A program made the translations under genes and the position numbers. Positions 1,357 through 23,534 of a stretch of 37,361 nt of DNA are shown in pieces. The notes beneath the pieces are model-generated. The model did not search any database. It saw nothing but the letters and a program-made list of their open reading frames with translations, and had not been told where the DNA came from. The DNA is from Candidatus Parvarchaeum sp. (GTDB taxonomy: Archaea; Nanobdellota; Nanobdellia; Parvarchaeales; Parvarchaeaceae), in contig JBMFWF010000008.1 of the NCBI GenBank assembly GCA_049965555.1, forward strand, positions 1 to 37,361. The letters are read 5' to 3'. Each line of letters opens with the position of its first letter. Positions within the stretch are counted from its first letter, which is position 1.

Positions 1357-2316
1357 TCAAGAGTAATTCCCATAAGTAAGATTTAAAGCGTGATTTTCTG
1401 GAAAAGTAGTTATATTGGTAAAAACTTTATTAGAGGAAGCCTTTAATGTCAAATTAAAGGAAAAATATACTCCTTTAGATGGAATTGTGGCATTTATATA
1501 CTGATACAAAGGCAAATAGAATTTATTAGATATACATTCTTTACCATTAACATATGCAGTAGAGTTAACATATACATTACTAATTAAGTAGCTTTTTACA
1601 GTAGAATGCAGATTATATTCGGAACAAGTTTGATTAAGAAATTTTGAGATACCAACATACTGCATTGTTAAATTTAATTGATTTATATCAAAACCAAATG
1701 AATATGAAGTTACTTGAGTTATATTATCTATTAAATATTTTATACCAAATGCTGTAGAATTTGATACTAATCCACAACTAAATTTACTTAATATACTGCT
1801 ATTACTCAAAGAAGGGTAAGCTGAGCAGATATAAAAACCAGTATTATTTACAAAGGCCATCTTTGACAAGGGCATGTAAATGTTATATTTACCAATTAAT
1901 TGCTTTAATTTTGATAGATTATAAATTAGTTTCGTTCCATTATCAATATATTCTCTTATAGAATTTACTAGAGTATTATTATTTAAAATATTCTGAAATG
2001 TTAGAACCTCCCCTACATTATAATAAGTTTTAAAAGCTGTAGAATTTACGTTTCCTTCCCTATAAATAGTATAATTGGAGGGTATGCTAAATTTCAGATT
2101 TAAAGGGATTGTAGATAAAGATTCATTACTTGTGAAGTTTGCTATGTAATAAAAAGTAAAATTACCTTTAAATGAACTTATTGAATTTGTTTCTGCTGCT
2201 AATAGAGAATTATAAGACATAAACTTTGTAGGTAAAGTATTAAAATATAAAAGTAAGAATATTACTATTATTACAATCACAGCAATAAATAATAAATAAT
2301 ACTTCTTTGATAACAT
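1357..2316 (-). CDS. Membrane-anchored/secreted hypothetical glycoprotein
   Basis: 319-aa ORF with N-terminal KK plus a hydrophobic helix, about 20 N-x-S/T sequons and four Cys. It starts 1 nt after the stop codon of the giant pilin-like gene. Confidence 0.8.
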   Translation of the reverse strand: MLSKKYYLLFIAVIVIIVIFLLLYFNTLPTKFMSYNSLLAAETNSISSFKGNFTFYYIANFTSNESLSTIPLNLKFSIPSNYTIYREGNVNSTAFKTYYNVGEVLTFQNILNNNTLVNSIREYIDNGTKLIYNLSKLKQLIGKYNIYMPLSKMAFVNNTGFYICSAYPSLSNSSILSKFSCGLVSNSTAFGIKYLIDNITQVTSYSFGFDINQLNLTMQYVGISKFLNQTCSEYNLHSTVKSYLISNVYVNSTAYVNGKECISNKFYLPLYQYINATIPSKGVYFSFNLTLKASSNKVFTNITTFPENHALNLTYGNYS

Positions 2317-2317
2317 A

Positions 2318-5300
2318 TTAGTTTATAAGCATACCACCATTACCACATGATCCGCCACCTGCGCCTGTGCCTACATGCACATACAAAGTCTGTGCTGGAA
2401 GATAAAGAGAAAGCTCTGCACTGTTGCCACTAGTATCTAAACAGCGATTATCACTATATCCACTAACAGAAATTTGTCCCGCGGATGTAACAATATAATA
2501 AGAAGCATACCCGGCATTTCCACCGGCATTATAAATTGTAAGGCTCCCTCCCTGCCAATTGCATTCACCGTAAAGATTTGCATGGTCGCTGCTACTTGCA
2601 AGTTCATATCCATTACATGAAGGAGCTGATGAGTTAGTATATGGATAATTCACTGTTGATAATATCCCTGGAGGATATGATACAGAATAACCACTAGATA
2701 GCCCTCCTGGATTTGAGAATGATGGAGAGAGTGTGTCGAAGGTATATGGCAATAATCTAGTCCACTGGATAGATTCCGTACCGCCTTGTCCAGCATTGTT
2801 ATCATACAACCCTAAAAAGAAATTTGTATTTCCTTGAGAAACAGAAGTGTTTGTAGAGTAGACTGTTCCTAAGTAAGGCGGAGAAACTGACCCGCCTTCA
2901 TTGCCTGTACCTTCCCAATAAGCAGTATATGTATAAAAGGTATTGTTTGACAATGTAGTTGAGACTGAACTTAATGTAGTACATGCATTATTTGTTCCTG
3001 GGTTATAGGTTAAGCTATATCCTCCTGCACCATTTCCAGTGATAGTATACCCATGAAACACGGAACAAGGGCCATAAGATTGGACGCTGCCACTATCAGA
3101 AGCTGGCCAACCCATTTCTAAGTTCATTCCATTAAAATCTGAAATCTTCATGTCTGCCTGCACTAACAGACTTGGATTGTATGAAGGCCCATTTACACCG
3201 TAAACATACCACCAGTTATTAGTATAATTTATGAATAAACCATTGTTAACACTTATAGACTCGCCGCTTTCACCGCCAGTATTAACGGTTGAAAATCCAG
3301 ATGGCAATGAAGTACCCGCATAATTCCAGTATCCCTCAAAGAATACATTACCACCATTGTCATACTGGGCGTAAGAAGAAGAAAGCTGGGGCGCTTCCCC
3401 AACAGTGTTTCCATTGAATAGATTAATTGATGGGTAGTAGACCACTGCATAAATATTTTCTGAGCCACCTCCTGCTATTTGAGCTAAGTTAAGCCAGAAT
3501 ATTGCGTTTACCTGATTTATATTATTTTCAGTATTCTCGTAATTTCCTTCATACCAACTATCAATTACAGTTCCATTACTGTACTGAAATTCAACATTTT
3601 GCATGTTACTCGAAAGAATTGAAGAATAAAGATTTGTATCAAGGAATATTTCTTGATCAAAAGGAGAGGGAGTAGCAGATGATGAGGGGTTATAAACTGT
3701 TATTGGTATATAACACTCCCAATTAGTAAAAGTATAAGTTGTGCCTTCTTCTACTGAAGCTGATGCCCGACATACTGCACCTCCCGCTGCATTGGCTGTT
3801 GCCGTTGCAGTGTAACTAGATTGTGAAGACTGACTGCTTAAAGATAATGTTATTGGGGAGCCGGTTGATGCTGAACCGCTTACAGCACCATTGTCATACG
3901 ATACAGACCAACTCGAAGCTGAAGAAGGTAAATTAATCTCATAGAATTCTGTTGTAGACGAACCGCTTGTTGAAAATGAAATCGAATTCGTGGAACCTGC
4001 TGAAACTGTTCCTGAAGAAGGTGATGGTGTGTAAGTATAAGTAAAATAGCCGTTGAATTCATGTGACCATGAGCCTGTTTGCTCCACTGTAATACCAGAA
4101 GGATCAGCAGGATTTGCTGTAACATCAGAATATGGCAGTAACTGTACGCTACTATTTGAAGGAGTCCATCCTATTACATTAAACTGGCTAGACAGCATAT
4201 AGGCGCCGTTTATCTCAAATGCACTCATTCCAGGAGCGCAAATGTTTGTCCAGTCTACTGCAACTTCGTACCAACCAGGAGTTACTGAAACGGTTGTTGG
4301 CCCATATTGTGTGGCACCTTGACCGTGCCAAGCGTTTCCACCGAAAACGCTAGACCAGGAATTAGTTCCATAAGGAGCATAAAACACTTCCATAGCATCA
4401 TCTGTAGTTATTGTAACGGTAATTGAAGACGTGAAATACATGTAAGCAACTGCTGTGTACCCTTGGGAATTATATGGCGAACCGCACGAAACACCATTAT
4501 TATTCAAATCGCTTAATGATGAAGGAAACGCCTGCGTAGGCATCCCTTCATAGATGTTACCTTGATAAGAAGAAGTACCGAAATTCCATTCTACGCTAGT
4601 TGAGGTTAATGATGGAACTGAATAAGAATAAGAAGGTATGCTGCCGCCGCTGGTAGTGGTTGTAAATTGTATGCTTGAAGAAGAGGATGTTTTCTCGACA
4701 TTATTGAAAGTAACATTCCATGGATAACTGCTTGGAAGGTTGCTTTCATCGAACGTAGTTATACATGTAGTTTGTTCAGAAAACGATACTGAAATTGTTG
4801 AGCCCACCTGTGCTGAACCGGAGGAAGGTGAAGGAGTAGTAGCAGTTGTACAATCTAATGTTGAAGAAGAATTTGGAGATATTGAATTAATTGTATATGA
4901 ATATGAAGGAAGACTACCACCACTGGTTGTAGTATGAAAAATAACATTTGATGGTGCAATGCTATTGTTACTAACACTATTATAGGTTACTGACCACGTT
5001 ATACCTGAACTTAAGCCAGTTTCTGTAAAAGTTGTTATACATGCTGTTGAACCGGAATAGCTTATAGCATTTGTAGTACCCGCTTCTGCCGATCCTGAAG
5101 AAGGCGAAGGAGTGTACGTAGTAGTACAGGCTAATGTTGAAGAAGAATTAGTTAAAGTTGGAATGGAATATGGATAAGTAGGTATACTGCTGCCGCTGGT
5201 TTTAGTTATGAATACTATGTTTGAAGGAGCATTTGCATTATTTGTTATGGAAGCATACGTTACTTCCCAGTTGTAACCGGAGGGCAATCCGCTCTCTGTA

Positions 5301-6511
5301 AATGTTGTTGTGCATGTTGTTTCTGCCGAAAAAGTGATTAAGACTGTAGAACCGGCTGCAGCTTTTCCCGATGAAGGTGATGGTGAATATGTTGTAGTAC
5401 AAGCTAATGTTGAAGAAGAATTTGATAGAGTACTAATTGAATAAGAATAATTTCCAGGGGGTCCAAAATAATAAATATTGCTTGTTGTATTGTCCTTTCC
5501 AACTCCATCGAATGACATGTCCCATTTGTAACCATTAGGTAAGCCACTTTCAGTAAAGGCAGTCGTGCATTCCCCTAGAAAACGTATATATTGATACTGC
5601 CCCACAGTTAAAGATCCGGATGAAGGCGAAGGCTGGTATACACAGCCAGCTACTACAGAATTGTTAACTGAATACGGATAAGTACCGCTTTTTTCATTTG
5701 TAAAAACTAATAAATTGGTAGTTGAAGATTGATTGAGGCCTGCATAGTCTACTTGCCATTTTGTGCCTAAAGGCAACTCCTTCTCTATGAAAGTTGCTGC
5801 ACATGAATTAATGAATATTATATTATTTAGAAGACCTGCTTCGGAATAGCCGGAGGAAGGCAGAGCCGTGAATGTACAGCCATTAAATGAAGTATTGCCA
5901 ACGGTAAAGGAATAATTACCAGGCACAGAAGCGAATAATATTTCAGTCCCCGTAGAAGTGTGATTAATGCCTTTAAAGTCTACCCACCATTGAGAGCCAG
6001 TTGGCAAACCATCTTCACTAAATTCCGTTATAATGGAAGGCAGTGGAAGATTTATATTTGCTGGCACGAAAGACATTGTTCCATTTGAAGATGCGTTTAT
6101 AGCACTTGAAACTGCAAATCCAATTCCTAAGGAAACCGTATCCCGAGTATTTGCAAGCTTCAATTTTGTAAAGCATATTGAATTCTGACCAGGAGATAAT
6201 GTCAGGTACTGGCAGCTTACATTTGATAACTTAGTATTATTATAAAGCAATGAGAACTTGTTTAAATTTACTGAAACTGAAAGAGAATTTGTTAGATAAA
6301 ATTCCATATAGCTGTAATTTGCAATTACAGCAGTTACTTTTACACCTGTAAACCCGCTTATTGTTGAAGAAGGCGATATAAAGTGCAAAGGAGAAAATAA
6401 ACCAAGGAGAAAAACCACAATTAAAACTGCGGCTACAAGAACAATCATCCAACCGTAAGTCATCAAGGCTTCTACAACAGTCTGTCCTTTTTTACCCGTT
6501 TTAATTCGCAT
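2318..6511 (-). CDS. Giant class III signal peptide (type IV pilin-like) surface adhesin with seven thermopsin-C-like repeats, a PA14-like insert and a DUF2341-like domain
   Basis: N-terminus is KKG|QTVVEALMTYGW plus a hydrophobic helix (Glu at +5). Repeats read F-x-E-x-x-L-P-x-x-x-x-W-x-V. TTDDAMEVF resembles a PA14 DD motif. IPITVYN...VEFQYSNG..IDSWYE...FWLNL...DNGGNVF resembles DUF2341. Confidence 0.85.
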   Translation of the reverse strand: MRIKTGKKGQTVVEALMTYGWMIVLVAAVLIVVFLLGLFSPLHFISPSSTISGFTGVKVTAVIANYSYMEFYLTNSLSVSVNLNKFSLLYNNTKLSNVSCQYLTLSPGQNSICFTKLKLANTRDTVSLGIGFAVSSAINASSNGTMSFVPANINLPLPSIITEFSEDGLPTGSQWWVDFKGINHTSTGTEILFASVPGNYSFTVGNTSFNGCTFTALPSSGYSEAGLLNNIIFINSCAATFIEKELPLGTKWQVDYAGLNQSSTTNLLVFTNEKSGTYPYSVNNSVVAGCVYQPSPSSGSLTVGQYQYIRFLGECTTAFTESGLPNGYKWDMSFDGVGKDNTTSNIYYFGPPGNYSYSISTLSNSSSTLACTTTYSPSPSSGKAAAGSTVLITFSAETTCTTTFTESGLPSGYNWEVTYASITNNANAPSNIVFITKTSGSSIPTYPYSIPTLTNSSSTLACTTTYTPSPSSGSAEAGTTNAISYSGSTACITTFTETGLSSGITWSVTYNSVSNNSIAPSNVIFHTTTSGGSLPSYSYTINSISPNSSSTLDCTTATTPSPSSGSAQVGSTISVSFSEQTTCITTFDESNLPSSYPWNVTFNNVEKTSSSSSIQFTTTTSGGSIPSYSYSVPSLTSTSVEWNFGTSSYQGNIYEGMPTQAFPSSLSDLNNNGVSCGSPYNSQGYTAVAYMYFTSSITVTITTDDAMEVFYAPYGTNSWSSVFGGNAWHGQGATQYGPTTVSVTPGWYEVAVDWTNICAPGMSAFEINGAYMLSSQFNVIGWTPSNSSVQLLPYSDVTANPADPSGITVEQTGSWSHEFNGYFTYTYTPSPSSGTVSAGSTNSISFSTSGSSTTEFYEINLPSSASSWSVSYDNGAVSGSASTGSPITLSLSSQSSQSSYTATATANAAGGAVCRASASVEEGTTYTFTNWECYIPITVYNPSSSATPSPFDQEIFLDTNLYSSILSSNMQNVEFQYSNGTVIDSWYEGNYENTENNINQVNAIFWLNLAQIAGGGSENIYAVVYYPSINLFNGNTVGEAPQLSSSYAQYDNGGNVFFEGYWNYAGTSLPSGFSTVNTGGESGESISVNNGLFINYTNNWWYVYGVNGPSYNPSLLVQADMKISDFNGMNLEMGWPASDSGSVQSYGPCSVFHGYTITGNGAGGYSLTYNPGTNNACTTLSSVSTTLSNNTFYTYTAYWEGTGNEGGSVSPPYLGTVYSTNTSVSQGNTNFFLGLYDNNAGQGGTESIQWTRLLPYTFDTLSPSFSNPGGLSSGYSVSYPPGILSTVNYPYTNSSAPSCNGYELASSSDHANLYGECNWQGGSLTIYNAGGNAGYASYYIVTSAGQISVSGYSDNRCLDTSGNSAELSLYLPAQTLYVHVGTGAGGGSCGNGGMLIN
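3720..6035 (-). repeat. Seven degenerate ~80-95 aa intragenic repeat units
   Basis: Unit starts: EFSEDGLP, TFIEKELP, AFTESGLP, TFTESGLP, TFTETGLS, TFDESNLP, EFYEINLP. The block NSSSTL(A/D)CTT.T/Y.PSPSSG recurs in units 3-5. Confidence 0.85.
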
Positions 6512-6569
6512 ATATATAGAAATTAATAAACTTTATTATTTTAAATAGGTTTAATTCAGAAAAGGTAAT

Positions 6570-6585
6570 GAAAAGCTTAAATATA
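6570..6585 (+). promoter_or_regulatory. BRE-TATA promoter upstream of the small ORF at 6617
   Basis: GAAAAGCTTAAATATA lies about 32 nt before the ATG at 6617. Confidence 0.55.
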
Positions 6586-6616
6586 ACAATGTATATTACT
6601 ATATTGTAGTGTATTT

Positions 6617-6712
6617 ATGAAAAGAAAGGAATTTTCTATAAATGATGGAGAGATTGAAGATCCGGATGAAGATTACGATATTGAGAAAGATGAAGAGCTG
6701 TTAGAAGTTTAA
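6617..6712 (+). CDS. Putative 31-aa acidic micro-protein (not in the ORF track)
   Basis: Translates as MKRKEFSINDGEIEDPDEDYDIEKDEELLEV*. It has an upstream BRE-TATA and ends 2 nt from the convergent peptidase stop. Confidence 0.5.
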   Translation: MKRKEFSINDGEIEDPDEDYDIEKDEELLEV

Positions 6713-6714
6713 TA

Positions 6715-7548
6715 TTATAATGCAGAAAAAATCTGAAGAAATGGGTTGCCAAATAAAATGGTTATAAGGACTGCAAAGAATATGCCAGGAACAAAAGGCA
6801 AGCCAATCTTAATTAATACCTCTTTTACGCCTTTTTCCTTCAGCTTTTGAATGTCTGCATTTGTTAACCCAGTACTTCTTTCAGGCACCATCTTTTTGCC
6901 ATTTGAATCTTTTGGTGACTCTGCAAGCCAGTCTCCTTCAGTAAGTTTTGAAACTTTTTCGTTTATGTACATTAGGTGATTTGCAACCAAGAATACAAAG
7001 CGTATAGAAAATATCATGAATATGCCTACTGCAATAAAAATATTTATCGGCAGGGGAAGTAATAAAACAGATATTATTATCATAACAATAGATCCAATGA
7101 AAAATGGTATGTCATACCTTTGGAAGTGCTTTTTGAGTTTCTTTATTTTTATTAATCCAAAGAATACTGTACCTATTAACCCGTAAATTCCTCCAAAAAG
7201 GAGGATATTTATAAATAATGCAATAAAAGACTTGTCCGAAAATAAGTTTAGAGAATTAAAAATTATGCTTAACCCTAACATTAATTTTACATCTCCCCCG
7301 CCCCATTGGCCTAAACGATACATAAAATAGGAAAACCCAAAGAGAAGAAGCATTGAAAGCGGTATGTAAATAAGATTTGAAACGGTATTATAAACTATTG
7401 AATAAATAAATGAAAGCAATAGTGCGCCTGCTATAAGTATATAGCTTATTGAATCAGGTACTTCTCTTTTCCTAAAGTCCTGTATTGAAGCTAATAAAAG
7501 CATCAAAAGCACAAAGATAAATATCAGATAATTCATTTCATATACCAT
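6715..7548 (-). CDS. Prepilin/prearchaellin peptidase, A24 family (PibD/FlaK-like)
   Basis: Polytopic membrane protein with both catalytic Asp motifs (SIQDFRKREVPD and WGGGDVK) and a C-terminal LPFVPGIF. The true start may be the second Met at 7536. Confidence 0.93.
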   Translation of the reverse strand: MVYEMNYLIFIFVLLMLLLASIQDFRKREVPDSISYILIAGALLLSFIYSIVYNTVSNLIYIPLSMLLLFGFSYFMYRLGQWGGGDVKLMLGLSIIFNSLNLFSDKSFIALFINILLFGGIYGLIGTVFFGLIKIKKLKKHFQRYDIPFFIGSIVMIIISVLLLPLPINIFIAVGIFMIFSIRFVFLVANHLMYINEKVSKLTEGDWLAESPKDSNGKKMVPERSTGLTNADIQKLKEKGVKEVLIKIGLPFVPGIFFAVLITILFGNPFLQIFSAL

Positions 7549-8281
7549 GTTATACTTAATTGGTACAGGATTATATTATTTAAATGATTTGCCTTTAAGG
7601 GCAATTGATGAACTAAAAAGATGCGATGAAATTTTACTTGAGAGATACACCAATCTAAATGATATAAGTTTCCTTGAAAAGCTTGAAAAAGAAATTGGCA
7701 AAAAAATAGAAATTATTGGAAGAGAAGCAATGGAAAGCGATTCGATACTGGATAAAGCTATGAATGAAAGAATAGCTGTTTTGGTGCCAGGTGACCCTCT
7801 TGCAGCTACTACCCATTTTTCACTGATACAAGAATGCAAAGCTAGAAATATACAAACAAAAATAATTCATGCCTCTAGCATATTCTCTTCTATTGGCGAA
7901 ACAGGATTATCTCTTTACAAGTTCGGCGGCACTGCCAGCATACCTATATATAGTGAGCATTTTCACCCAGAAAGCTTTTTTGAAATAATAGAGAGAAATA
8001 TAAAATGCAATTATCATTCTCTTGTACTATTGGAAGTCAGAAATAAAGAAGAATTCGTAAGCCCAGAAAAGGCTGTTGAGATACTTAAAGAGATAGAAAA
8101 CAAAAGAGGAGTAAAAATAATAGACTGGAAAAATGTAATTGCGATATCAAAGATGGGAAGCATTGATCAAAGAATCATAAATGTAAATAGTGAGGATTTA
8201 AAAAGCCTAGAACCTCCTTGTTCGCTTATAATCCCTGGAGAGCTCAATGAAAACGAAAAAGATGCACTAAAACTTCTATAA
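7547..8281 (+). CDS. dph5: Diphthine synthase
   Basis: MLYLIGTGL, ERYT, LVPGDPLAATTH, IHASSI, GLSLYKFG, HSLVLL and SLIIPGEL motifs. Confidence 0.95.
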   Translation: MLYLIGTGLYYLNDLPLRAIDELKRCDEILLERYTNLNDISFLEKLEKEIGKKIEIIGREAMESDSILDKAMNERIAVLVPGDPLAATTHFSLIQECKARNIQTKIIHASSIFSSIGETGLSLYKFGGTASIPIYSEHFHPESFFEIIERNIKCNYHSLVLLEVRNKEEFVSPEKAVEILKEIENKRGVKIIDWKNVIAISKMGSIDQRIINVNSEDLKSLEPPCSLIIPGELNENEKDALKLL

Positions 8282-8284
8282 AGA

Positions 8285-9172
8285 TTAGGATGCGCTTATT
8301 GTTAGAGGTATGCTATTAGAAGTCAAACAGTATGTGTAACCTGCGCTAACGTTTATTGATGTATCAGAACTATAACCAATCGAATTAGAAATAGGTTTTA
8401 CTACAAGAGAAAAGGGTATTGGTGCAAGTAGCCTGCCATCCTGAAAATTAAGTGAGTACTCTGACTGAGAGATATTTACACTTGGATTTATGGTATATGT
8501 ATTACCGGTTGAAGAGGTGAAATAGCCCTCTCCGTTCTTTATGCTTATATAAACCCAATTAAGCTTGGAAGTTGAACCTATCCCAGTTAAAGAGCTACCG
8601 CTCACATATTCACTCTGATTTGATGGAACTGGGCTAGCAGTTATTGTAGTATTAAATGATTGCAAATAAATGTTTATTGGAAGGCCTGATGATGAGGTAA
8701 CTGATGACATAGGGACAGACCCGCTAAAGTTGTAATTTTCTATAGTAAGTGGATAATTTGTATAAGATACAGCATTAAAACAAGCGCTAAAGGTTATTGA
8801 GCAACTTGTTGGACTTGAACTTGAAAAAGTCCAAGTAGAAGAGGATGGAGAATCGGGAGGTATCAAAAAGCTCTTGCTCTGCACGGGCAGAAAAGAACAT
8901 CCATAAGGGGATAATGTTACATTTAAGTAGTTTTTGCCATGGTTAAAAACATTCGATATGAAATTCATGCTTTCCCCAGTGTACAAATGCGATAAAGGAG
9001 TTACTGCAGATACATTGAATGATATCGGCAGGTAAGGATTTACATTCTGTGTAGTTGTCGTAGTCGTACTGGTCTTAAAATTAAGATACCCTCCCTTATA
9101 AAGAAAGAAAACACCGACTATTATTATAATCACAACGATTACTATGACTCCGGATTGTCCTTTATTTTTCAT
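8285..9172 (-). CDS. Class III signal peptide pilin-like protein (paralog 4)
   Basis: MKNKG|QSG plus a hydrophobic helix, a Ser/Thr-rich beta domain and a C-terminal YTY strand. Confidence 0.75.
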   Translation of the reverse strand: MKNKGQSGVIVIVVIIIIVGVFFLYKGGYLNFKTSTTTTTTQNVNPYLPISFNVSAVTPLSHLYTGESMNFISNVFNHGKNYLNVTLSPYGCSFLPVQSKSFLIPPDSPSSSTWTFSSSSPTSCSITFSACFNAVSYTNYPLTIENYNFSGSVPMSSVTSSSGLPINIYLQSFNTTITASPVPSNQSEYVSGSSLTGIGSTSKLNWVYISIKNGEGYFTSSTGNTYTINPSVNISQSEYSLNFQDGRLLAPIPFSLVVKPISNSIGYSSDTSINVSAGYTYCLTSNSIPLTISAS

Positions 9173-9174
9173 AA

Positions 9175-10107
9175 TTATATGCAGGAAATTTGGTTGCCTG
9201 TAAAAGCAACATAATAATTATAATTGGTATCTATTGCTATTGTATTCTGGGAGCTTGCATTGTCATTTGTAACTGTTATCTCAATAGGTAAACCTGAACC
9301 TGCGGATATCAACTGAAGATTCACATTATGAAGAGTTAAAGAAAGTGTTTTGCCTGAAACTGAAAATGGATAATTTTGACCATTGTAATAAACAAATGCA
9401 CTTGCAATCCCTCCTGTTGAGTTATCAATGTACAAGCTTATCGTTTTAATGTAGTCATTCGGATTATTATTAGAAATAGCGGTATAAGGGGCACCGGATT
9501 TATAGTTTCCGGAATTGTAATCAGGGGACACATCCAAAGTGATGGTTGTAGACAATGAACCAGAAGGAATCTGAGTCTCGACTGATGCTGGTAGGGCAGA
9601 TAAAGTGATAAAACCAGAATTTGAATTAGAGTATATGGATTGAGGTATCAAACCTGATTTTGTTCCGTAAGGATAAGTAATTACTGAAGTTGTTAAGTTC
9701 TGCCAAAAATTTTGTACTTCAAATGCAAAATAGGGTATAACTGAGCCGCTTGAACTTGTGCATGAAGAATTAAAAAGTATTGTTGAAGGGGTTTTCATAT
9801 TAGCTGGGACCGAAACAGATCTAGAGGCTGGCACGATTGAAACTGGAGGAGCAGTAAGAACCTGGAGAGTTGCAGTTAAAGACTGATTAAATGGATTAAA
9901 TAAAGTTACATAAAGAGGAGAGGACTTGCCAGAATAAAGCTGTGAAACATTGGAATATGCAGATATACTGAAGGTGCTCGGAGTGCTCGTACTTGGTTTG
10001 CCTAACTTCAAAGCACCGCTATTAAAGCTATACAATGCAATTATTAGTATTATAACAATAACCAACACTCCTGCAATTGCAGCTCCGCTTGCGCCTAATC
10101 TATTCAT
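9175..10107 (-). CDS. Class III-like signal peptide pilin-like protein (paralog 3)
   Basis: MNRLG|ASGAAIAG plus a hydrophobic helix and a C-terminal YNY strand. Confidence 0.65.
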   Translation of the reverse strand: MNRLGASGAAIAGVLVIVIILIIALYSFNSGALKLGKPSTSTPSTFSISAYSNVSQLYSGKSSPLYVTLFNPFNQSLTATLQVLTAPPVSIVPASRSVSVPANMKTPSTILFNSSCTSSSGSVIPYFAFEVQNFWQNLTTSVITYPYGTKSGLIPQSIYSNSNSGFITLSALPASVETQIPSGSLSTTITLDVSPDYNSGNYKSGAPYTAISNNNPNDYIKTISLYIDNSTGGIASAFVYYNGQNYPFSVSGKTLSLTLHNVNLQLISAGSGLPIEITVTNDNASSQNTIAIDTNYNYYVAFTGNQISCI

Positions 10108-10140
10108 AAAATAATAATAGTAAATTAACTATAAAAGCGT

Positions 10141-11133
10141 TTAACTTGAATAAGGTTCTATATAAAGTCCTATTGGGAAATAGCCCTCTTCTTCGTAAGA
10201 ATATGAAACACTAAAATGCATATTAGCTTGAATATAGGGTATGCTTGATCCAGAAAGCTTATTGTACTCACTTGTACTCAATGATATGGGCAGCTCTATA
10301 GAAGCACCGGTTGGGCCTATAGTAATCGCTTTTGAAAATAGGGCAGTTCCATTTGAAAATTGCCTGACTATAAAGCCAAGAGCATTGGCATCCGTTATAT
10401 TTATTATAGAACTGTTTAATATTATGTTTATTTGAGTATTCCCTATTGGAACACCGGAACCGACATTATTAAGCGACAGACCCAATTCTATGTCCTGGCC
10501 GTAAACTACTGGCTGTGATGAAGAAGAGGAGAAATAGATGGGGCCTGCTGTAACACCAGATGGCTGTGTCACCGGGGCGGGATAATTACCATTATTACTT
10601 GCGGTCTGAGAAACAAATTCAAGCTGCTGCGAAGCCGTTGAAATGTATGAAAAATTAAGATAATAACCTATGTTCTGTGAGTATTGTATGTTTCCATAGG
10701 CACTTGCAGGTGGAGCCAAAAAGGTAAATCCTTCTGACAAGATATCTCCGGTTGCAAGTGAAGGAATACTTACACACCTTCCACTAGTTATTGCATTACC
10801 ATTTGGATTTGGAGAAGAAGTTTCCGGGCTTGAAAGAATTTTAAAAAGACCTAAGTTATCAAGACAGAAATAAAGATTAGAAGCCGCTTTTCCATTTAAA
10901 TTATTTGCTACTAAGAAAGTCGCACCGAATGTTGAGGATGGAGAAACTTTTATAGGAGCATTAACTGAGATAACTCCAACTGCAACAGTATGATTTAATG
11001 AAGTTGCGGTTGGAACCGGGGAAAAACCCAAGCTGTGAAGAAGGTAAGGGCCGTACAAGAACAATATTACTATAATTACCAGTACAATTACGCCTCCCGC
11101 AATCCCACTTCCATTCGATCCTTTTTTATTCAT
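10141..11133 (-). CDS. Class III-like signal peptide pilin-like protein (paralog 2)
   Basis: MNKKG|SNGSGIAGG plus a hydrophobic helix, an AGPIYF motif and a C-terminal YSY strand. Confidence 0.7.
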   Translation of the reverse strand: MNKKGSNGSGIAGGVIVLVIIVILFLYGPYLLHSLGFSPVPTATSLNHTVAVGVISVNAPIKVSPSSTFGATFLVANNLNGKAASNLYFCLDNLGLFKILSSPETSSPNPNGNAITSGRCVSIPSLATGDILSEGFTFLAPPASAYGNIQYSQNIGYYLNFSYISTASQQLEFVSQTASNNGNYPAPVTQPSGVTAGPIYFSSSSSQPVVYGQDIELGLSLNNVGSGVPIGNTQINIILNSSIINITDANALGFIVRQFSNGTALFSKAITIGPTGASIELPISLSTSEYNKLSGSSIPYIQANMHFSVSYSYEEEGYFPIGLYIEPYSS

Positions 11134-11137
11134 AATA

Positions 11138-12610
11138 TTAGCTACATACCTGATTTGATATTACAACAGGCATATTCAAAGTTTCATTATAGTTGTAATT
11201 TACATAACCTATTACGGTCATAGTATTGAAATGCATACCATTTAAAGAGCTCACCGGGTTCAAATCAAGATAGAATGTTGAACCTGAACTTAGTACCTTG
11301 CTGTTGCTTATGTAACAATCCCAATAATTTGACCCTGGAAATTGAAAGCCTTGCCTTTGAGTAGGGCTCGCAGTCACACAGCTCCAGTAGCTTGTGGATG
11401 GGTTAGAAGGATAGAAGTTTTTACTTATGTACAAAGAAACGTTATTTACTTGATATGGGTAATTGCCATTGTTCTTTAAACTTACCTCTAAAGGAACTGA
11501 ATCTATCTTTGTTATTACCGGCTGCTTTACTACAGTGTATACTTCAATCTGCACAGGTCCTGCAGAGTAAAAATTAAATGAAGGTTCTGCTGGCACAAGT
11601 GCCTGTGAAGACGATACAAGCTGTGACTGGAAAGAATCCGACATAAATTCTATTGGAAGTATAACCGCGGCAGTATAATTCTTAACCAGAAAACTTGCAA
11701 GAAAAGACATAGTCAAGGGAAAAGTGAGCTTGTCTGAAGAAGGAGGACATGACAATTCAAAATTAGTTATATTCTCTTTCGTTTCGCCTGGAGCCAGTAT
11801 GCCAACCAAACTCGAGTCCTTTATTGCTGGTGGTGAACTTTGTGTTTCCGCTGGGTTTATAAATTTGGATAGCATGTCTTTACAGTATGTAGCTGCGCCG
11901 GGTGAAACTGTGCTTCCACATGAGATGTTTACTTCCAAGTTATTCGGAGTATCGGGCCCTAAAGGAACATTGCCATTGTTATCTACGGAGTAAAGAATCG
12001 TACCCTGCTGCGGGTTCGTTGTAAGAACTACCTGCTGATTAGAAGGATAACTGAAAGTAAGAAAAGATAAAAAGGTTGGAGTTGAATTTACTGCAGTAAC
12101 CTGGGGCTGCGTAACTAGAAGGTTTGGATTCTGCACTTCTGCAATAAAAGTTGAAATCGATGAAATGCCTGATGAAATCAACCCGCCCACCTTCGAAAAA
12201 ATCGAGCCATATGTAACCTCCGTGTAGACTATACCGACGTTTGTTGGTGCAACAAATATGAAATATATTACAATTATAACTAACAATATAATAAATGGAG
12301 CAAGGAGGAGAGAGTGCTTTTTTAAACTCTTTTTTAATAAATCTTTATCCAATAATTGGGTCTTCGCCTTGTTTTCCTCTTCCAGCTTTATAAAATCGGT
12401 TGATACTCCATGTGCAGTTATCTGATGCTGATAGAGTTGCGGCTTTGTCTTAAAGCGCAGCCCACAGATATCGCACACATTCCTTCCTTTTTTACCATAA
12501 TTCGGATCAGAATTTGGTTTAATAGGGGTAGGTGGAGTTGGAGGCTTTGGATTTGGAGCCGGACTTCCTCCTGCAGCTGCTTGGCCCCTTCTGTTTATAT
12601 TAAGCATCAT
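11138..12610 (-). CDS. Single-pass membrane protein with an N-terminal C2H2 zinc finger and a pilin-like extracellular domain (paralog 1)
   Basis: RRG|Q start, Pro-rich linker, CDICGLRFKTKPQLYQHQITAH, a TM helix near residues 100-120, then AGPVQI and YNYN motifs shared with downstream genes. Confidence 0.8.
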   Translation of the reverse strand: MMLNINRRGQAAAGGSPAPNPKPPTPPTPIKPNSDPNYGKKGRNVCDICGLRFKTKPQLYQHQITAHGVSTDFIKLEEENKAKTQLLDKDLLKKSLKKHSLLLAPFIILLVIIVIYFIFVAPTNVGIVYTEVTYGSIFSKVGGLISSGISSISTFIAEVQNPNLLVTQPQVTAVNSTPTFLSFLTFSYPSNQQVVLTTNPQQGTILYSVDNNGNVPLGPDTPNNLEVNISCGSTVSPGAATYCKDMLSKFINPAETQSSPPAIKDSSLVGILAPGETKENITNFELSCPPSSDKLTFPLTMSFLASFLVKNYTAAVILPIEFMSDSFQSQLVSSSQALVPAEPSFNFYSAGPVQIEVYTVVKQPVITKIDSVPLEVSLKNNGNYPYQVNNVSLYISKNFYPSNPSTSYWSCVTASPTQRQGFQFPGSNYWDCYISNSKVLSSGSTFYLDLNPVSSLNGMHFNTMTVIGYVNYNYNETLNMPVVISNQVCS

Positions 12611-12644
12611 AATAAGAAATAAAGGACGTTGTTATATATAAATT

Positions 12645-13850
12645 TCAACCTTTAATAGATTTAAGAGAGATATAAGAAGGTATTACTAAACCATCGGTAG
12701 ATAGTTTTATGGTCCCGCTGTAATTTCCATTTGTTGCAGTAACTCCAACGAAATTTGAAGGGATAAGAAGCACATTTTCGCCATCCGAAAGAGTATTTGC
12801 AGCAATCGTTAAATTTGCGCCACTAGGCGTAAAGTAAAGGTAAATGTTGCCCTTTCTTATTATACTGGATATATACAATGTAAGAAGGTAATTGCCCTTT
12901 GTTGCATTAACAGAATAGTAAACTGTTGGAGAGTTTGCTGCTATATATGGTATAGTGTAGTTAAGATAAGCGTTTGCTATCTCGTATGAAACGTTTTCAG
13001 CAGGTTGAAAACCCACATTAAACAACAAAGGAAGGATTATTGAAGAGCTTGAAAGATTGGAAGCGCGGATTGCTTTTGATATTACAATAGAAGGTATATT
13101 AACCGTAATCTGTGAATTATTTCCGTTGTTTATACTTGAGATAACTTGGCCATTGACGGAAACATTTAAATTCCCGTAGCCTATTGGGGTGTAAACAATT
13201 GAATAGTCGCCAACGCCACTGAAAGTCAATACTTTTATTGGCAGGATATTTGCATCATTTTTGCCCTGCTCTTTAATAACCTCTATTTTTGCCAATTTGA
13301 AAGACTGCGATAAAGCAAAGCCATTTAAGCTGTCTGTTATTGATAAGATGTACTTTCCAGTTTGGCTTGCGGGTATCTCCCTTATTATCGTTTCATTTTT
13401 TACAGGCAATGTGGAAAAGAATGAATTGCCATTCAATGAAAGGCTAAGTTTTGGAGTACCGGAAACTGACTGAACAATTATCTCGATAAAGTAATCTGAT
13501 GATTGGGAAAGATTCAAGTCTATATTATAGGAGGAAGAGCCGAATATGCTTGAGCCTATAGATACACTGCTTGCATTGAATATAGTTGAATTAAAAAGCG
13601 GGTAATTAACGCCAAAAGTGCCTAAGGTGTATGAGGTATTGACAGATTTGCTGTTCCCTCCTATGTAGGTATCAAGATTCTGATAGTACTCTCCTGCAGG
13701 TATGGATGGCGTAGAAACGCTTGTGTTGTTTATTCCAAGAAGCTTATATGCCACAGGCGGCGGCACCAGAAGCAGGTATATTACTATCGAACCTATAAGT
13801 ATAAGCATCAACGCTACAACGGCGGGAATCCTTTCCCTTTCCACTGCCAT
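12645..13850 (-). CDS. Membrane-anchored beta-rich surface protein
   Basis: 401-aa ORF with an N-terminal TM helix ending in IYLLLVPPP, many N-glycosylation sequons and no Cys. It is the first gene of the minus-strand surface cluster. Confidence 0.75.
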   Translation of the reverse strand: MAVERERIPAVVALMLILIGSIVIYLLLVPPPVAYKLLGINNTSVSTPSIPAGEYYQNLDTYIGGNSKSVNTSYTLGTFGVNYPLFNSTIFNASSVSIGSSIFGSSSYNIDLNLSQSSDYFIEIIVQSVSGTPKLSLSLNGNSFFSTLPVKNETIIREIPASQTGKYILSITDSLNGFALSQSFKLAKIEVIKEQGKNDANILPIKVLTFSGVGDYSIVYTPIGYGNLNVSVNGQVISSINNGNNSQITVNIPSIVISKAIRASNLSSSSIILPLLFNVGFQPAENVSYEIANAYLNYTIPYIAANSPTVYYSVNATKGNYLLTLYISSIIRKGNIYLYFTPSGANLTIAANTLSDGENVLLIPSNFVGVTATNGNYSGTIKLSTDGLVIPSYISLKSIKG

Positions 13851-20971: not shown

Positions 20972-21892
20972 ATGAAAAGCTATATTCTTAAAAACGACGG
21001 AGAAAACTATTTTGTCAATGACACTAAAATAATCGAAAACATAAATGATGTCAAACCCATAGCCGATGAAAAGGCCGTTTCAATAATGAAAAAACTATCA
21101 AAAAAACCTTATAGCTCAGCAAATTTAGCAAAGGAATTAAAGCTTGATAAAAAAACAGCTGCATTCTACATCGGAAAACTTGCAAAAGCAGGGTTGATAA
21201 GCATAGAGCCACAGAATAATGGAGAGGTAATAAAATCTGCGTATAACTCCTTTTCATATGAAATCAACGACAACAAGATAAAATTCGATCCTAAGATGAA
21301 GACAAAAGAAAACCAGTATGCACTTAATTTTTTCAGCAAATTCATAAACAACGGGAAGTTTGACGGATACATATGCGTTGGAGCATCGGATCCGCATGGA
21401 GAGTACAAGGCAGTAGCAAGAGATTCGCATTACACTGCATACTTGGGTATGTTCTTCGGTCAGTTCATAGATTTGCCGCAGACAATGCCAATAATACTTG
21501 ACACAGACGTTATATCAAAGAACCTTTTCAAAAAGAACCTAATAGTAATCGGCGGACCCGTCACAAACCTCGTAACAAGGGACATAAACAACTTTTTACC
21601 TATAAAGTTCATAAAGGAAGAAGGATGGGGCCTGAAGGACAGGAACGGGATACACATAAGAGATTACGAAGGAACTATAGAGAAGATAAAGAACCCCTTT
21701 GACAAGGACAAGGATATAATACTTATAGGAGGAATTAGAAATGTAGGAACGTTATCGGCAATGCTCGCCGCTACAAGATTTTCAGGCATAACATTCAAAG
21801 GATACAATGGAGAAGTGCCCTGGAGCCTTATGGTAAGAGGGTATGACATAGACGGGGACGGACAGATAGATTCTATAGAAACCGTAAAATGA
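20972..21892 (+). CDS. Winged-HTH (ArsR-like) protein fused to an S-layer-C-like GGPxxN domain; putative regulator
   Basis: IMKKLSKKPYSSANLAKELKLDKKTAAFYIGKLAKAGLI forms the wHTH. It also has NLIVIGGPVTN, ILIGG...GT..A and a C-terminal DIDGDG. Confidence 0.75.
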   Translation: MKSYILKNDGENYFVNDTKIIENINDVKPIADEKAVSIMKKLSKKPYSSANLAKELKLDKKTAAFYIGKLAKAGLISIEPQNNGEVIKSAYNSFSYEINDNKIKFDPKMKTKENQYALNFFSKFINNGKFDGYICVGASDPHGEYKAVARDSHYTAYLGMFFGQFIDLPQTMPIILDTDVISKNLFKKNLIVIGGPVTNLVTRDINNFLPIKFIKEEGWGLKDRNGIHIRDYEGTIEKIKNPFDKDKDIILIGGIRNVGTLSAMLAATRFSGITFKGYNGEVPWSLMVRGYDIDGDGQIDSIETVK

Positions 21893-22372: not shown

Positions 22373-22942
22373 TTATTTTTTGCCTGGAGGCTGCCTTGTC
22401 AACGCAAAAACAGCTATTGTCATTGCCATCAAAGTAAGTATAGTTGTTAGAAAAGACGGGCTAGTTAATATTGACATTATGTATGTTGAATTAAGGTCTC
22501 CCGGAAAAGAGGATGTAGAAACTTTAGCTGCCGTGATGTTCGTAGCAGTTGAATTTGCTCCTAAAACCCCTGGATAATAACTTGATACTGTACCAAACGC
22601 TATCAAACCAAAGATAAACATTACAAAAATGACCAATGCAGGAACAAGCGAACTTTTCTTTAGGTAGTCAATTATTGAACTCTGCGGAACCAAGGCCGTA
22701 GAAAGTAGGAATATTACAAGGAAGATGAAGAACATAACAGTTAAAACGTAAGGCAAAAACGCTATCAAAAAACTGACAAAGAAAGAGGACATTAAAGTGA
22801 TTAAACCGACTGCAACGGCTATAAGCGCAGGCACATCTGAACTTGAAAAGAATTTTGAGCGGGCAAGCAGGCCGTATACTAAAGCAAAGACTAAGACAAA
22901 TACTGTTAAATCATACAAACCAAAAGCCGGTAAATTTATCAT
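22373..22942 (-). CDS. Polytopic membrane protein (paralog C)
   Basis: About five TM segments and the motif FVLVFALVYGLLARSKFF.....ALIAVAVG. Confidence 0.8.
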   Translation of the reverse strand: MINLPAFGLYDLTVFVLVFALVYGLLARSKFFSSSDVPALIAVAVGLITLMSSFFVSFLIAFLPYVLTVMFFIFLVIFLLSTALVPQSSIIDYLKKSSLVPALVIFVMFIFGLIAFGTVSSYYPGVLGANSTATNITAAKVSTSSFPGDLNSTYIMSILTSPSFLTTILTLMAMTIAVFALTRQPPGKK

Positions 22943-22951
22943 CTTATCCTC

Positions 22952-23512
22952 CTAGGGATTCTTGCTTGAGCCGCCGCCGCCAAAAGTAAAGGCGATAACA
23001 AAAATTATTATTATCCCCAAGATCAGATACGCTAGGTTAGGGCCTATTAGTGAAGAGCCTATGCTAGAAAGTTCACTCCCTACTCCTGTACTTGAAGGCA
23101 CAAGTGCGTTTGAAAACACTCCCCCTCCTAAAAACAGTATGCCTATCGCTACAACAAAAAGCCATTTTGCATTATTTCCTGTAATGTCGAACTTAAGAAG
23201 GCTTGCGACTATAAGCATAGCCACCAGTATAAGAGCTGTAACAGCAAGAGTAGAAGACATGTATATAAGCACAGGGCTTACCCATGCGACCGTTACTGCG
23301 AAATAGGATATTATAAGCGCGATTAATCCCCTTGCCCCCTTGTTTTTATTGTCCGCAAAGTAGCTTACATTCCTAAGTACAGTACTTAAAATTGCAAGTA
23401 TGAGAAGAAAGGCGAGCCAAAACTCTATAGGATTTGTAACGTTTGGAGGGGTTATAAGACTCAATGCCTTATCAATCTGGGAATACAAAGACCCCGCTGC
23501 CGCTATTACCAT
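22952..23512 (-). CDS. Polytopic membrane protein (paralog B)
   Basis: About five TM segments and the motif FLLILAILSTVLRNVSYF......GLIALIIS. Confidence 0.8.
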   Translation of the reverse strand: MVIAAAGSLYSQIDKALSLITPPNVTNPIEFWLAFLLILAILSTVLRNVSYFADNKNKGARGLIALIISYFAVTVAWVSPVLIYMSSTLAVTALILVAMLIVASLLKFDITGNNAKWLFVVAIGILFLGGGVFSNALVPSSTGVGSELSSIGSSLIGPNLAYLILGIIIIFVIAFTFGGGGSSKNP

Positions 23513-23534
23513 GAATAATTATGGATACTTTTAG

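Follow-up and report, generated by a model that had tools for sequence, protein, structure and literature searches.

Gene Content of the Locus

The window analyzed here is a 37,361-nucleotide stretch of DNA from a Candidatus Parvarchaeum (the ARMAN-4/5 genus), a tiny archaeon of acid mines. Between positions 1357 and 13850 we confirmed eight open reading frames on the minus strand, at the coordinates given in an earlier note on this DNA; a ninth gene lies on the plus strand. These 12.5 kb probably represent three functionally linked yet separable units and not one apparatus. N-glycosylation sequons are dense here, at 3- to 11-fold the median for the genome.

Five single-copy genes for surface proteins form a minus-strand operon at 8285–13850, with gaps of 34, 4, 33, and 2 bp. 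The first gene product (g401, 12645–13850) contains an N-terminal membrane helix, a stalk, and all-β CBM-like jelly-roll domains. The second (g490, 11138–12610) is a bitopic membrane protein with a cytoplasmic Pro-rich stretch, a C2H2 zinc finger, one transmembrane helix, and an ectodomain. Three small subunits follow: g330 (10141–11133), with a K-G↓S leader (the arrow marks the predicted cleavage site), an anchor helix, a Ser/Thr/Pro stalk, and two Ig-like domains; g310 (9175–10107), with an L-G↓A-S leader; and g295 (8285–9172), with a K-G↓Q leader. g310 and g295 are paralogues (hhalign, 96.6% over the full length).

The adjacent frame at 6715–7548 (minus strand) is indeed the prepilin (class III signal) peptidase that the earlier note had recognized, and belongs by sequence to the PibD/FlaK type. 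It matches Peptidase_A24 (PF01478; E = 9e-14, 52.2 bits with a cutoff of 26.5), contains six hydrophobic segments, and its residues Asp24 and Asp86 (within GGGD) reach a conservation of 95% or more across 41 orthologues. Peptidases of the PibD/FlaK type (5–6 TM form) share this Pfam domain, the two catalytic aspartates including the GxGD motif, and about six transmembrane segments, and they process many substrates from one gene, as predicted here. The A24 match is the only one in the whole genome; among 61 related genomes, 55 have a match, likewise as one copy each. This sole enzyme must also act on pilins encoded on other contigs, which is why the proposal of a single dedicated apparatus is not upheld; what stands is that the locus encodes surface proteins, several of them very probably A24-dependent. 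Unlike known PibD/FlaK genes, this gene is kept in a divergent pair with that of diphthine synthase (dph5, 7547–8281, plus strand; TP_methylase match, 1.9e-16), their start codons overlapping by 2 bp. Since no more than 1.6 kb separates dph5 from A24 in 10 of 19 loci of other families (and in 11 of 20 class-level loci), we reject the view that it splits the cluster. The two genes are an old divergent pair, with dph5 a housekeeping gene outside the surface system.

The giant protein g1397 (2318–6511, minus strand) is, by its sequence features, a genuine modular type IV pilin. A K-K-G↓Q leader, Glu at +5, and a TYGW stem precede about seven "GLP" repeats of ~80–95 residues, an inserted domain of ~180 residues, and a C-terminal region that a language model tentatively links to DUF2341 (Atlas, 0.91). 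This assignment is the sole lead; the suggested lectin-like character found no support in Pfam, as none of six segments matched a family credibly even with E values up to 1 allowed. g1397 is one of 10 TYGW-stem pilins in the genome; the other nine have an identical stem, from which that of g1397 has diverged. It shares domains with proteins of 3008, 1131, 1171, and 1025 residues. Modular type IV pilins are known, for example PilB and PilC of Streptococcus sanguinis. Like these, g1397 adds further domains to a full pilin leader and stem, and the ten-pilin set combines a common stem with different heads. In contrast to them, g1397 is archaeal and far larger (1397 residues), and its approximately seven repeats are common to non-pilin giant proteins of the same genome. 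Of 20 family loci, 13 have the gene next to A24 (duplicated in locus L020) and 7 lack it there; it is the variable part of the neighborhood and differs from species to species. One base pair downstream starts g319 (1357–2316, minus strand), a membrane-anchored protein with a hydrophobic, evidently uncleaved anchor and 20 sequons (rank 2 of 628). In each of the four loci with an identified g319 homologue (L022, L023, L025, and L027), it comes after the orthologue of g1397.

As the earlier note stated, no assembly ATPase, platform protein, or small pilin is encoded inside the locus. All three are present elsewhere in the genome: two T2SSE ATPases (T2SSE match, 2.1e-36) and two T2SSF platform proteins are encoded on other contigs, and additional pilins include a LamG pilin and two small pilins with the same TYGW stem as g1397. 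The giant protein probably serves as an adhesin subunit in the pilus that the contig 3 machinery assembles.

A Five-Gene Module of Nanoarchaeia

Of 20 Parvarchaeaceae loci, 15 have all five operon genes in order beside the dph5–A24 pair, at identities as low as 33–40%. With linkage conserved in relatives and pilus assembly genes in the genome, we made none of the observations that the earlier note had named as speaking against its reading. Genus g2 of this family has a divided array, with g295 and g310 still next to A24 but g330 and g401 ~18 kb away or on another contig. Outside the family, the module is away from A24 in 17 of 19 A24-centered loci. Adjacency to the peptidase is therefore not required.

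Of 301 Nanoarchaeia genomes, 72 contain the g401 family (1339 cluster representatives) and 138 contain the g330 family. Among the matches listed, at least 23 of 34 g401-containing genomes from outside Parvarchaeaceae have a g330-family match within 6 kb of g401 on the same contig. Two or more lipobox-containing frames lie downstream in 19 of 21 distant module loci, and a transmembrane protein of 394–750 residues occupies the place of g490. Models built from ectodomains alone recovered the order g330-type, g310-type, g295-type: the last lipoprotein of distant modules matches g295-type ectodomains in 6 loci (2e-8 to 3e-3), and the middle one matches g310-type ectodomains in 2 loci (3e-5 and 9e-4). 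By these comparisons, the operon at 8285–13850 is the local copy of a module spread across the class Nanoarchaeia, the small subunits of which are predicted lipoproteins in other lineages. The previous description as an array of atypical pilin-like subunits gives way to this one. Our literature searches did not find a description of such a module.

Leaders and Lipid Anchors

Four of the five proteins for which class III-like leaders had been proposed (1397, 295, 310, and 330 residues) bear them: a short basic stretch, then G followed by Q/A/S, then a hydrophobic helix of ~20 residues. The small subunits of Parvarchaeaceae have conserved [K/R]-[G/A/S]↓[Q/A/S] leaders. In the 330-residue family, G occupies −1 in 17 of 17 sequences (Gly5 of g330 is invariant) and K-G-[A/S/Q] is found in 16; in the 295-residue family, all 20 sequences have [G/A/S]Q and 18 of them have [K/R][G/A/S]Q, the +1 residue (Gln6 of g295) being invariant. 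The g310 motif is the weakest of the three: [G/A][A/S/Q] occurs in all 16 family members, but position −2 is basic in no more than 6, and 3 contain no K/R. The +1 to +3 residues (S-N-G, A-S-G, and Q-S-G) differ from the FlaFind pattern.

The fifth proposed protein, g490, does not belong to this group. Its RRG↓Q motif runs into the Pro-rich stretch and the zinc finger instead of a hydrophobic helix, the sole hydrophobic helix is at residues 102–120, and the motif is absent from distant orthologues. With the motif outside a leader context, four and not five class III-like proteins remain. The C2H2 finger (residues 45–67) scores 19.8 bits, below the Pfam cutoff of 25.2, and is backed by PDB zinc-finger matches (3.8e-7).

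Regular expressions of our own, applied to simple ORF calls, found a lipobox in 0 of 870 frames from the genome of the window. The same census gave 0–1 of 336 in family loci, 3–4 of 346 in A24-centered loci of other families, and 28–31 of 313 in their module loci. Lipobox signals are also aligned in 9 of 9 non-family rows of the g330-family alignment. The small subunits are thus predicted to be lipid-anchored in other lineages and to carry prepilin-type leaders in Parvarchaeaceae. For g401, [K/R][G/A/S]Q occurs in 102 of the best 150 family representatives, and this type of motif dominates outside Parvarchaeum (132 of 150). Parvarchaeum g401 lacks the G/A/S-Q site of its relatives and, by sequence, evidently carries an uncleaved signal anchor (transmembrane segment 11–29); it contains 15 sequons (rank 24 of 628). 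Peptidase dependence is therefore not uniform across the module.

Predicted Folds

The AF2 model of g330 (pLDDT 85.2) contains a helix (10–34), a low-confidence segment (36–42), and β-domains at 52–174 and 199–323, which VIA-align matches to macroglobulin (MG) domains (Z 10–11) and CARDB (8.8). The model shows Ig-like domains on what would be a flexible stalk, not a filament-type pilin. The ectodomain of g490 (~370 residues) shares its fold class with the small subunits; hhalign gave 58.6% for g490 and g330, and Atlas structures of DPANN proteins of ~317–319 residues match g490 with TM scores of 0.61–0.65. The model of g401 (pLDDT 86.9) has a helix at 10–28 and low confidence at 41–52; residues 85–195 match CBM-type domains (VIA-align, Z 9–11), and BcsB, the periplasmic subunit of bacterial cellulose synthase, is a two-domain match (Z 10.7). 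Both g401 and BcsB (Z 9.9–10.7) contain tandem CBM-like jelly rolls and a single membrane anchor. They differ in that the anchor of g401 is N-terminal instead of C-terminal, in the relative orientation of the domains (rmsd 18 over both), and in the lack of a synthase partner here. In the modeled module proteins, a 25-residue helix and then a linker of low confidence precede the domains, and no pilin or archaellin is among the Ig-like and CBM-like fold matches listed for them. Archaeal pilins also have Ig-like heads, so that such folds would in themselves be compatible with a place in a filament.

How the Module May Work

The best explanation, to which we assign a probability of roughly 0.6, is a membrane-anchored surface complex, a single A24 peptidase that matures its anchors, and a separate modular pilin. 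All five module proteins would be inserted N-in/C-out by the Sec pathway; from operon conservation we infer that they may form one complex, conserved across Nanoarchaeia. In most lineages the three small subunits, each predicted to have two Ig-like domains, would be lipid-anchored by the lipobox cysteine, with the g401 homologue carrying a prepilin-type leader; in Parvarchaeaceae each small subunit would carry such a leader in place of the lipobox. The sole peptidase would cut after the conserved G/A/S, leaving a hydrophobic helix at the mature N-terminus as membrane anchor for the glycosylated ectodomain; no filament would be built. The same enzyme would mature g1397. The contig 3 ATPase and platform would then place this protein, as a minor or tip subunit with an adhesive function, in pili made of the 158- and 160-residue pilins of contig 1. 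Any role of these proteins in host contact would be putative.

It is less likely that the N-termini of g295, g310, and g330 are uncleaved signal anchors that merely tolerate a small residue, with adjacency to A24 inherited in a slowly rearranging family. The housekeeping neighbors MetAP, FEN1, and DUF357 are equally syntenic in family loci, and the split array in genus g2, the separation from A24 in most other families, the weak motif of g310, and the evidently uncleaved anchors of g401 and g319 fit such a view. It does not explain why the G or Q positions are invariant in fast-evolving proteins of 33–45% overall identity, why this motif type dominates the g401 family outside Parvarchaeum, or why five genomes from three other families also have A24 at most about 1.5 kb from the module.

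A single pilus-like attachment filament, made of all class III-type proteins with the adjacent peptidase and machinery encoded elsewhere, is more doubtful still. The small residue at −1 before a hydrophobic helix, the A24 adjacency conserved within the family, the two ATPases and platforms in the genome, and the β-sandwich heads of archaeal pilins would suit it. The orthologues elsewhere are lipoproteins, which could not enter a pilus by an N-terminal helix, yet operon and ectodomains are kept. In addition, the small subunits lack the Glu at +5 and the TYGW stem of the ten evident pilins, their helix leads into a low-confidence Ser/Thr/Pro linker instead of packing on the head, the module includes a zinc-finger transmembrane protein and the uncleavable g401, and none of the 42 loci read has an ATPase or platform beside it. 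In favor of a filament, incorporation of class III binding proteins into such structures has been proposed, in the part of PMC13705601 available to us. A glycan-handling or wall-building device, with g401 as BcsB-like polysaccharide guide or binder and the Ig-like subunits as scaffold, is very improbable: Pfam CBM-like and BcsB matches occur in 9 and 6 of 35 g401-family members, BcsB chains are among the Foldseek and VIA-align matches, and the ARMAN wall is described as ~30 nm without an S-layer (PMC4110969, in part), but the window's own g401 has no Pfam match, Z values of 9–11 to generic jelly rolls are only modestly over background according to the tool's note, and no synthase or glycosyltransferase was conspicuous among the N-termini read in module loci.

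Relation to Known Systems

A membrane-held complex would have a precedent in the Sulfolobales bindosome (BasEF; PibD). [quoted passage not shown] As far as these portions go, both systems contain large surface glycoproteins with prepilin-type leaders, which a PibD-type peptidase of broad range presumably cuts and which the remaining hydrophobic helix then holds on the cell; both hosts are acidophiles without lipoproteins, and other archaea have lipid-anchored homologues. Encoded in the bindosome locus, too, is a membrane protein with an N-terminal Zn-ribbon (arCOG07264), which g490 resembles by description alone. In contrast to the bindosome, the module has no solute-binding fold or ABC transporter, its ectodomains are Ig-like or CBM-like, and it forms its own class-wide five-gene operon without an adjacent Bas-type ATPase or platform. 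A second candidate is cls.004306 (NEQ255), a DPANN-specific cluster listed as a secreted protein often adjoining arCOG02487, with S-layer-like proteins named in the same entry (PMC6393860 and, for arCOG02487, PMC5898192, in part). By description only, this too is a DPANN-wide uncharacterized secreted or Ig-like neighborhood, and it may be the same module; the accessible part of PMC6393860 mentions neither an arrangement of five genes nor a switch in anchor type.

The sole peptidase of this archaeon thus stands beside a widely conserved five-gene surface set and a giant pilin, which makes the region a neighborhood of surface-protein genes, not a self-contained pilus machine.

Locus and Genomic Setting

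Positions 1357–13850 of the window hold nine ORFs, eight on the minus strand and one on the plus strand, in exact agreement with the gene list of the earlier note. Five minus-strand genes, named here by the length of their products in amino acids, form an array: g401 (12645–13850), g490 (11138–12610), g330 (10141–11133), g310 (9175–10107), and g295 (8285–9172). They are followed by a dph5-like ORF (7547–8281, +), an A24 prepilin peptidase gene (6715–7548, −), the gene of the giant protein g1397 (2318–6511, −), and that of a membrane-anchored protein (g319, 1357–2316, −). The genome (783,591 bases on 28 contigs, 92% complete) encodes each of the five array proteins once. One gene of the locus has copies with 68–93% identity in Candidatus Parvarchaeum acidiphilum ARMAN-4, Ca. 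P. acidophilus ARMAN-5, and a "Parvarchaeota/Nanoarchaeota archaeon". N-glycosylation sequons occur at 1.2 to 6.3 per 100 residues in the surface proteins considered here, versus a genome median of 0.57. The window sequences of g319, g1397, g295, g310, g330, and g401 match no Pfam family at E values up to 0.01. A mobile or defence island was considered and rejected because the surrounding genes are housekeeping genes.

Other parts of the window contain a 306-residue protein (20972–21892, +) with an ArsR-type HTH (7.2e-5) and an "S-layer like family, outer domain" (PF05124, 8.4e-7), three successive ORFs of 189, 186, and 187 residues without a Pfam family (22373–24141, −) that may be tandem paralogues, and a 642-residue ORF, also without a Pfam family (30101–32029, −), that adjoins tRNA-Ala (GGC) at 29972–30044.

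The neighbourhood is well conserved among 20 loci from Parvarchaeaceae. Fifteen of them carry, in this order, MetAP, FEN1, DUF357, g401, g490, g330, g310, g295, dph5 on the opposite strand, and A24, which supports a linkage of these genes. One further locus lacks a detectable g310, one stops at a contig edge, and one is rearranged or fragmented. Two loci from genus g2 retain only g295 and g310 beside A24, with g330 and g401 located some 18 kb from there or on a different contig. The gene downstream of the peptidase is more variable. In 13 of the 20 loci a g1397 homologue comes after A24, in seven it is missing there, and the locus of one sister species (L020, G002:C25, 710–10030) carries two tandem g1397 paralogues of 1761 and 1124 residues at this position.

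The dph5-like ORF, which had been thought to split the cluster, forms a divergent pair with the peptidase gene, and the two start codons overlap by 2 bp. The distance between dph5 and A24 is at most 1.6 kb in 11 of 20 loci compared across the class, including 10 of the 19 that come from other Nanoarchaeia families. This conservation identifies dph5 as one half of an old A24–dph5 pair and not as an intruder.

One Peptidase for Many Candidate Substrates

The A24 protein is recognized by PF01478 with an E value of 9e-14 (52.2 bits, cut-off 26.5), as expected from its earlier annotation. It has six hydrophobic segments and the two catalytic aspartates, Asp24 and Asp86, that are kept in at least 95% of 41 orthologues. 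The second aspartate is part of a GGGD sequence, corresponding to the GxGD motif of PibD/FlaK-type peptidases. The proposal that this enzyme belongs to a dedicated system fails, since it is the sole A24 match in the genome and has many other candidate substrates. A crude genome-wide scan returned 34 candidate class III substrates among 1815 ORFs, and a stricter scan returned 24 among 870. An A24 match is present in 55 of 61 related genomes, with exactly one copy in each. Because the cell has only this one peptidase, the neighbouring peptidase gene does not define a pilus locus. The case thus cautions against over-reading the adjacency of a peptidase gene and class III-type proteins.

Ten of the candidate substrates are pilins with a TYGW-containing stem. 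In nine of these (66–571 residues), the 30 residues following the cleavage site are identical while the heads differ, which points to gene conversion or to heads being exchanged like cassettes on a fixed stem. The corresponding genes are scattered over contigs C1, C3, C4, C5, C6, and C7 (for example C1:15398–16410 and C3:10041–11210), and the set includes two small contig 1 pilins with lengths of 158 and 160 residues as well as a LamG-headed pilin beside assembly genes. The window encodes no T2SSE ATPase and no T2SSF platform protein, as noted previously for the locus, and is not classed as a type IV filament locus. Homologues of both are found elsewhere in the genome. On contig 3 (6422–9886), the gene of a T2SSE ATPase (2.1e-36) precedes those of two T2SSF platform proteins, and a second, long T2SSE-type ATPase (746 residues, 4.5e-17) maps to contig C6 within 41932–46268 (L011:6933–11269). 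This second ATPase is flanked by an S8 subtilase-like protein of 806 residues and a 705-residue protein that matches T2SSF only weakly.

Class III-like Leaders and the Giant Pilin

Five proteins of the locus had been credited with class III-like cleavage sites, and four of these, namely g1397, g295, g310, and g330, do start with a short basic leader and a small residue followed by a single hydrophobic helix. The predicted cleavage sites are K-K-G|Q with Glu at +5 (g1397), K-G|Q (g295), L-G|A (g310), and K-G|S (g330). The full class III pattern, with a basic leader, G/A/S at −1, and a helix of about 20 residues directly after, is present in g1397, g330, and g295, and in a weaker form in g310. 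These positions are held within Parvarchaeaceae while the remaining sequence drops to 33–45% identity. All 17 sequences of the g330 family have Gly at −1, and 16 of them have K-G-[A/S/Q]; in the g295 family, Gln +1 is invariant (20/20) and [K/R][G/A/S]Q nearly so (18/20). All 16 g310 homologues have [G/A][A/S/Q], with a basic residue at −2 in just six and no K/R at all in three. We infer from these leaders that g295, g310, g330, and g1397 would be cleaved by the A24 peptidase. The fifth candidate, g490, was rejected. Its RRG|Q sequence leads into a proline-rich stretch and a zinc finger, the only transmembrane helix spans residues 102–120, and distant orthologues lack the motif. The proteins g401 and g319 have plain N-terminal anchors, and g401 carries Arg at the aligned −1 position.

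Of the four leader-bearing proteins, only g1397 has a pilin stem, and on this basis it is classed as a pilin and the others are not. Its head region is complete, with leader, Gln +1, Glu +5, and TYGW; g295, g310, and g330 lack both Glu +5 and TYGW. The body of g1397 contains some seven "GLP" repeats, spread over residues ~160 to ~930, together with an inserted domain of ~180 residues. These repeats are visible only as recurring motifs: Tandem Repeats Finder detected no DNA repeats in the gene, and a BLASTP self-comparison listed no internal repeats at 1e-3. The same repeats recur in giant proteins of 3008, 1131, 1171, and 1025 residues encoded in the same genome. In the 3008-residue protein (C11:8724–17750), the repeat units are 34–40% identical to those of g1397 over 350–500 residues. 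The description of the giant protein as lectin-like did not find support in Pfam searches with six segments of g1397 at E values up to 1, which returned only a spurious RADX match (0.021) and neither PF10102 nor Laminin_G. Similarity of the last 450 residues to a DUF2341 cluster is seen only in Atlas language-model features (0.91, 171 shared features), and "lectin-like" therefore stays a lead. The best reading of g1397 is that of a modular adhesin-type pilin.

Predicted Folds of the Array Proteins

In archaeal type IV pilins, a long N-terminal helix packs against the globular head and allows the subunits to polymerise. The AlphaFold2 model of g330 (23-row alignment, mean pLDDT 85.2), a prediction and not a solved structure, consists of a helix (residues 10–34) and two beta-sandwich Ig-like domains, and the helix is predicted to be separated from these domains by an unstructured stretch (residues 35–51) within which residues 36–42 score below 50. 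VIA-align comparisons relate g330 to macroglobulin-type domains (Z 10–11) and a CARDB domain (8.8), and the Foldseek matches listed include the AglB C-terminal region as well as integrin and complement domains. The g401 model (35 rows, pLDDT 86.9) starts with a helix (residues 10–28), continues with a region of low confidence (41–52), and is all-beta thereafter. Residues 85–195 resemble CBM-type jelly rolls (Z 9–11), and a two-domain match to BcsB has a Z of 10.7. These assignments agree with the Pfam matches of g401 family members, which are CBM-like in nine and BcsB in six of 35 sequences; g401 of the window itself has none. The fold matches listed for the g330 and g401 models include no type IV pilin or archaellin, which is not proof of difference.

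In g490, the proline-rich stretch precedes a C2H2 zinc finger that scores below the Pfam cut-off and matches PDB zinc fingers at 3.8e-7. A PDB search with the g490 profile returned zinc fingers only; g1397 and the family profiles of g330 and g401 retrieved nothing from the PDB at E values up to 1. The ectodomain of g490 is similar to DPANN proteins of ~317–319 residues (TM 0.61–0.65, Atlas's own model), and g490 scores 58.6% against g330 in hhalign. The g490 ectodomain probably belongs to the Ig-like set as its fourth member. The subunits g295 and g310 are paralogues (hhalign 96.6%).

A Class-Wide Module with Two Kinds of Predicted Anchor

Homologues of g401 are not confined to Parvarchaeaceae. 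Of 301 Nanoarchaeia genomes, 72 contain full-length matches (~400 residues) to the g401 profile, representing 27 of 177 genera, and 138 contain matches to the g330 profile (79 of 177 genera). Outside Parvarchaeaceae, 34 genomes match the g401 profile. In at least 23 of them, a g330-family match is listed on the same contig and no more than 6 kb away; one locus is cut by a contig end, three genomes have g330 matches at unlisted places, and seven have none at E 0.001. Common to 22 distant loci is a layout in which the g401 homologue is followed by a protein of 394–750 residues that combines a cytoplasmic head with a single membrane helix, and then by two to four proteins of ~290–440 residues. 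At least two of these smaller proteins carry a lipobox, defined as a signal peptide that ends in [L/V/I][A/S/T/V/I][G/A/S]C, in 19 of 21 distant loci. What had been pictured as an array of atypical pilin-like subunits is a class-wide module with lipobox-bearing small subunits in other lineages.

The assignment of orthologs was based on HMMs built from ectodomains alone, leaving out the signal region. The first small protein is of the g330 type in ten distant loci (1e-19 to 5e-10, one at 5e-4), the last is of the g295 type in six (2e-8 to 3e-3), and the middle one is of the g310 type in two. Since the ectodomain types follow gene position, g330, g310, and g295 must have been distinct before the lineages split, and their anchors would have changed separately. 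In the alignments, the K-G leaders of Parvarchaeaceae take the place of a signal peptide ending in G-C in other lineages. A census with two regular expressions found no lipobox in g295, g310, or g330, nor in any of the 870 ORFs of the genome. The same census counted 0–1 lipoboxes among 336 ORFs from Parvarchaeaceae loci, 3–4 among 346 from A24-centred loci of other families, and 28–31 among 313 from module-centred loci of other families. A set of 34 multi-TM ORFs from loci of other families consisted mostly of A24 peptidases. Proximity of the peptidase gene to the module is mostly a feature of Parvarchaeaceae: an A24 gene lies within ~1.5 kb in five genomes of three other families (2 of 19 A24-centred and 3 of 20 module-centred loci), and in most families the two are not adjacent.

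The g401 family comprises 1339 length-conserved cluster representatives. Among the best 150, the helix is preceded by [K/R][G/A/S]Q in 102 and by [K/R][G/A/S]x in 30. Parvarchaeum g401 has Arg-Ile at the aligned site, which is the reverse of the pattern seen with the small subunits. A search with the g401 profile retrieved 48 proteins, all unnamed or "hypothetical" and none with a Pfam domain. Eight of the best 150 representatives (P0114, P0122, P0139, P0160, P0167, P0168, P0174, and P0183) are longer (~555–577 residues) and match the profile in two stretches, which points to an extra or duplicated domain.

Possible Function and Significance

These observations would be explained by a membrane-anchored surface complex that is common to Nanoarchaeia and, in this lineage, encoded beside the general prepilin peptidase of the cell. 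In Parvarchaeaceae, three subunits of this putative complex would sit on prepilin-type leaders in place of lipid anchors, and a species-variable adhesive pilin would be encoded downstream of the complex and peptidase genes. Both the formation of a complex by the five proteins and its function are inferences.

Large class III substrates that are not pilins have a precedent in the sugar-binding proteins of the bindosome, described in Sulfolobales and now predicted widely, according to two reports (PMC4858521, PMC13705601). By analogy, the module proteins may work like such binding proteins, though they are not members of that group. Bindosome-type class III proteins combine a solute-binding fold with an adjoining ABC transporter, whereas the module folds are Ig-like (MG/CARDB-type) and the five-gene operon contains no ABC transporter gene. 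For the proposed surface complex, the ortholog-by-ortholog swap from lipobox to prepilin-type leader extends the pattern of the Sulfolobales binding proteins to another protein class and another phylum.

According to PMC12462473, lipoproteins are reported to be prevalent in DPANN, and the lipidation enzyme AliA (arCOG02177) to be "present in DPANN with some gaps"; a table in PMC5898192 gives arCOG02177 as absent from Sulfolobi and Thermoplasmata. An anchor swap in a genome without detectable lipoproteins makes a testable prediction on the loss of AliA. PMC4110969 describes ARMAN cells as having a wall of ~30 nm, no S-layer, and 5–8 nm features near the inner membrane that are linked into the cytoplasm. 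Tying these features to the five-gene module is speculation. In a joint reading, the module would be a core complex of the envelope or of host contact in Nanoarchaeia. Its counterpart in ARMAN cells would be the 5–8 nm densities that cryo-tomography shows directly outside the inner membrane, the link across the membrane would be made by the cytoplasmic zinc finger of g490, and adaptation to acid would have led to the loss of AliA lipidation, forcing three subunits, one by one, onto prepilin-type helices. Taken with all of its parts, we consider this reading improbable, with odds of roughly one in seven (0.15). If true, it would represent a natural experiment showing that lipid and prepilin-type anchoring are interchangeable.

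PMC6393860 lists a DPANN-specific "secreted protein next to S-layer-like proteins" (cls.004306, NEQ255) that may be part of the module. We found no account of the five-gene module or of the anchor change in the literature on ARMAN/Parvarchaeota pili and cell wall, archaeal lipoproteins, and DPANN class III signals. DPANN archaea live attached to hosts, and to our knowledge almost none of their cell-surface proteins have been assigned. The g401 family and its four operon partners constitute a common surface module of Nanoarchaeia, which gives cryo-tomography, proteomics, and genetic work on the few relatives that can be cultivated a defined target.
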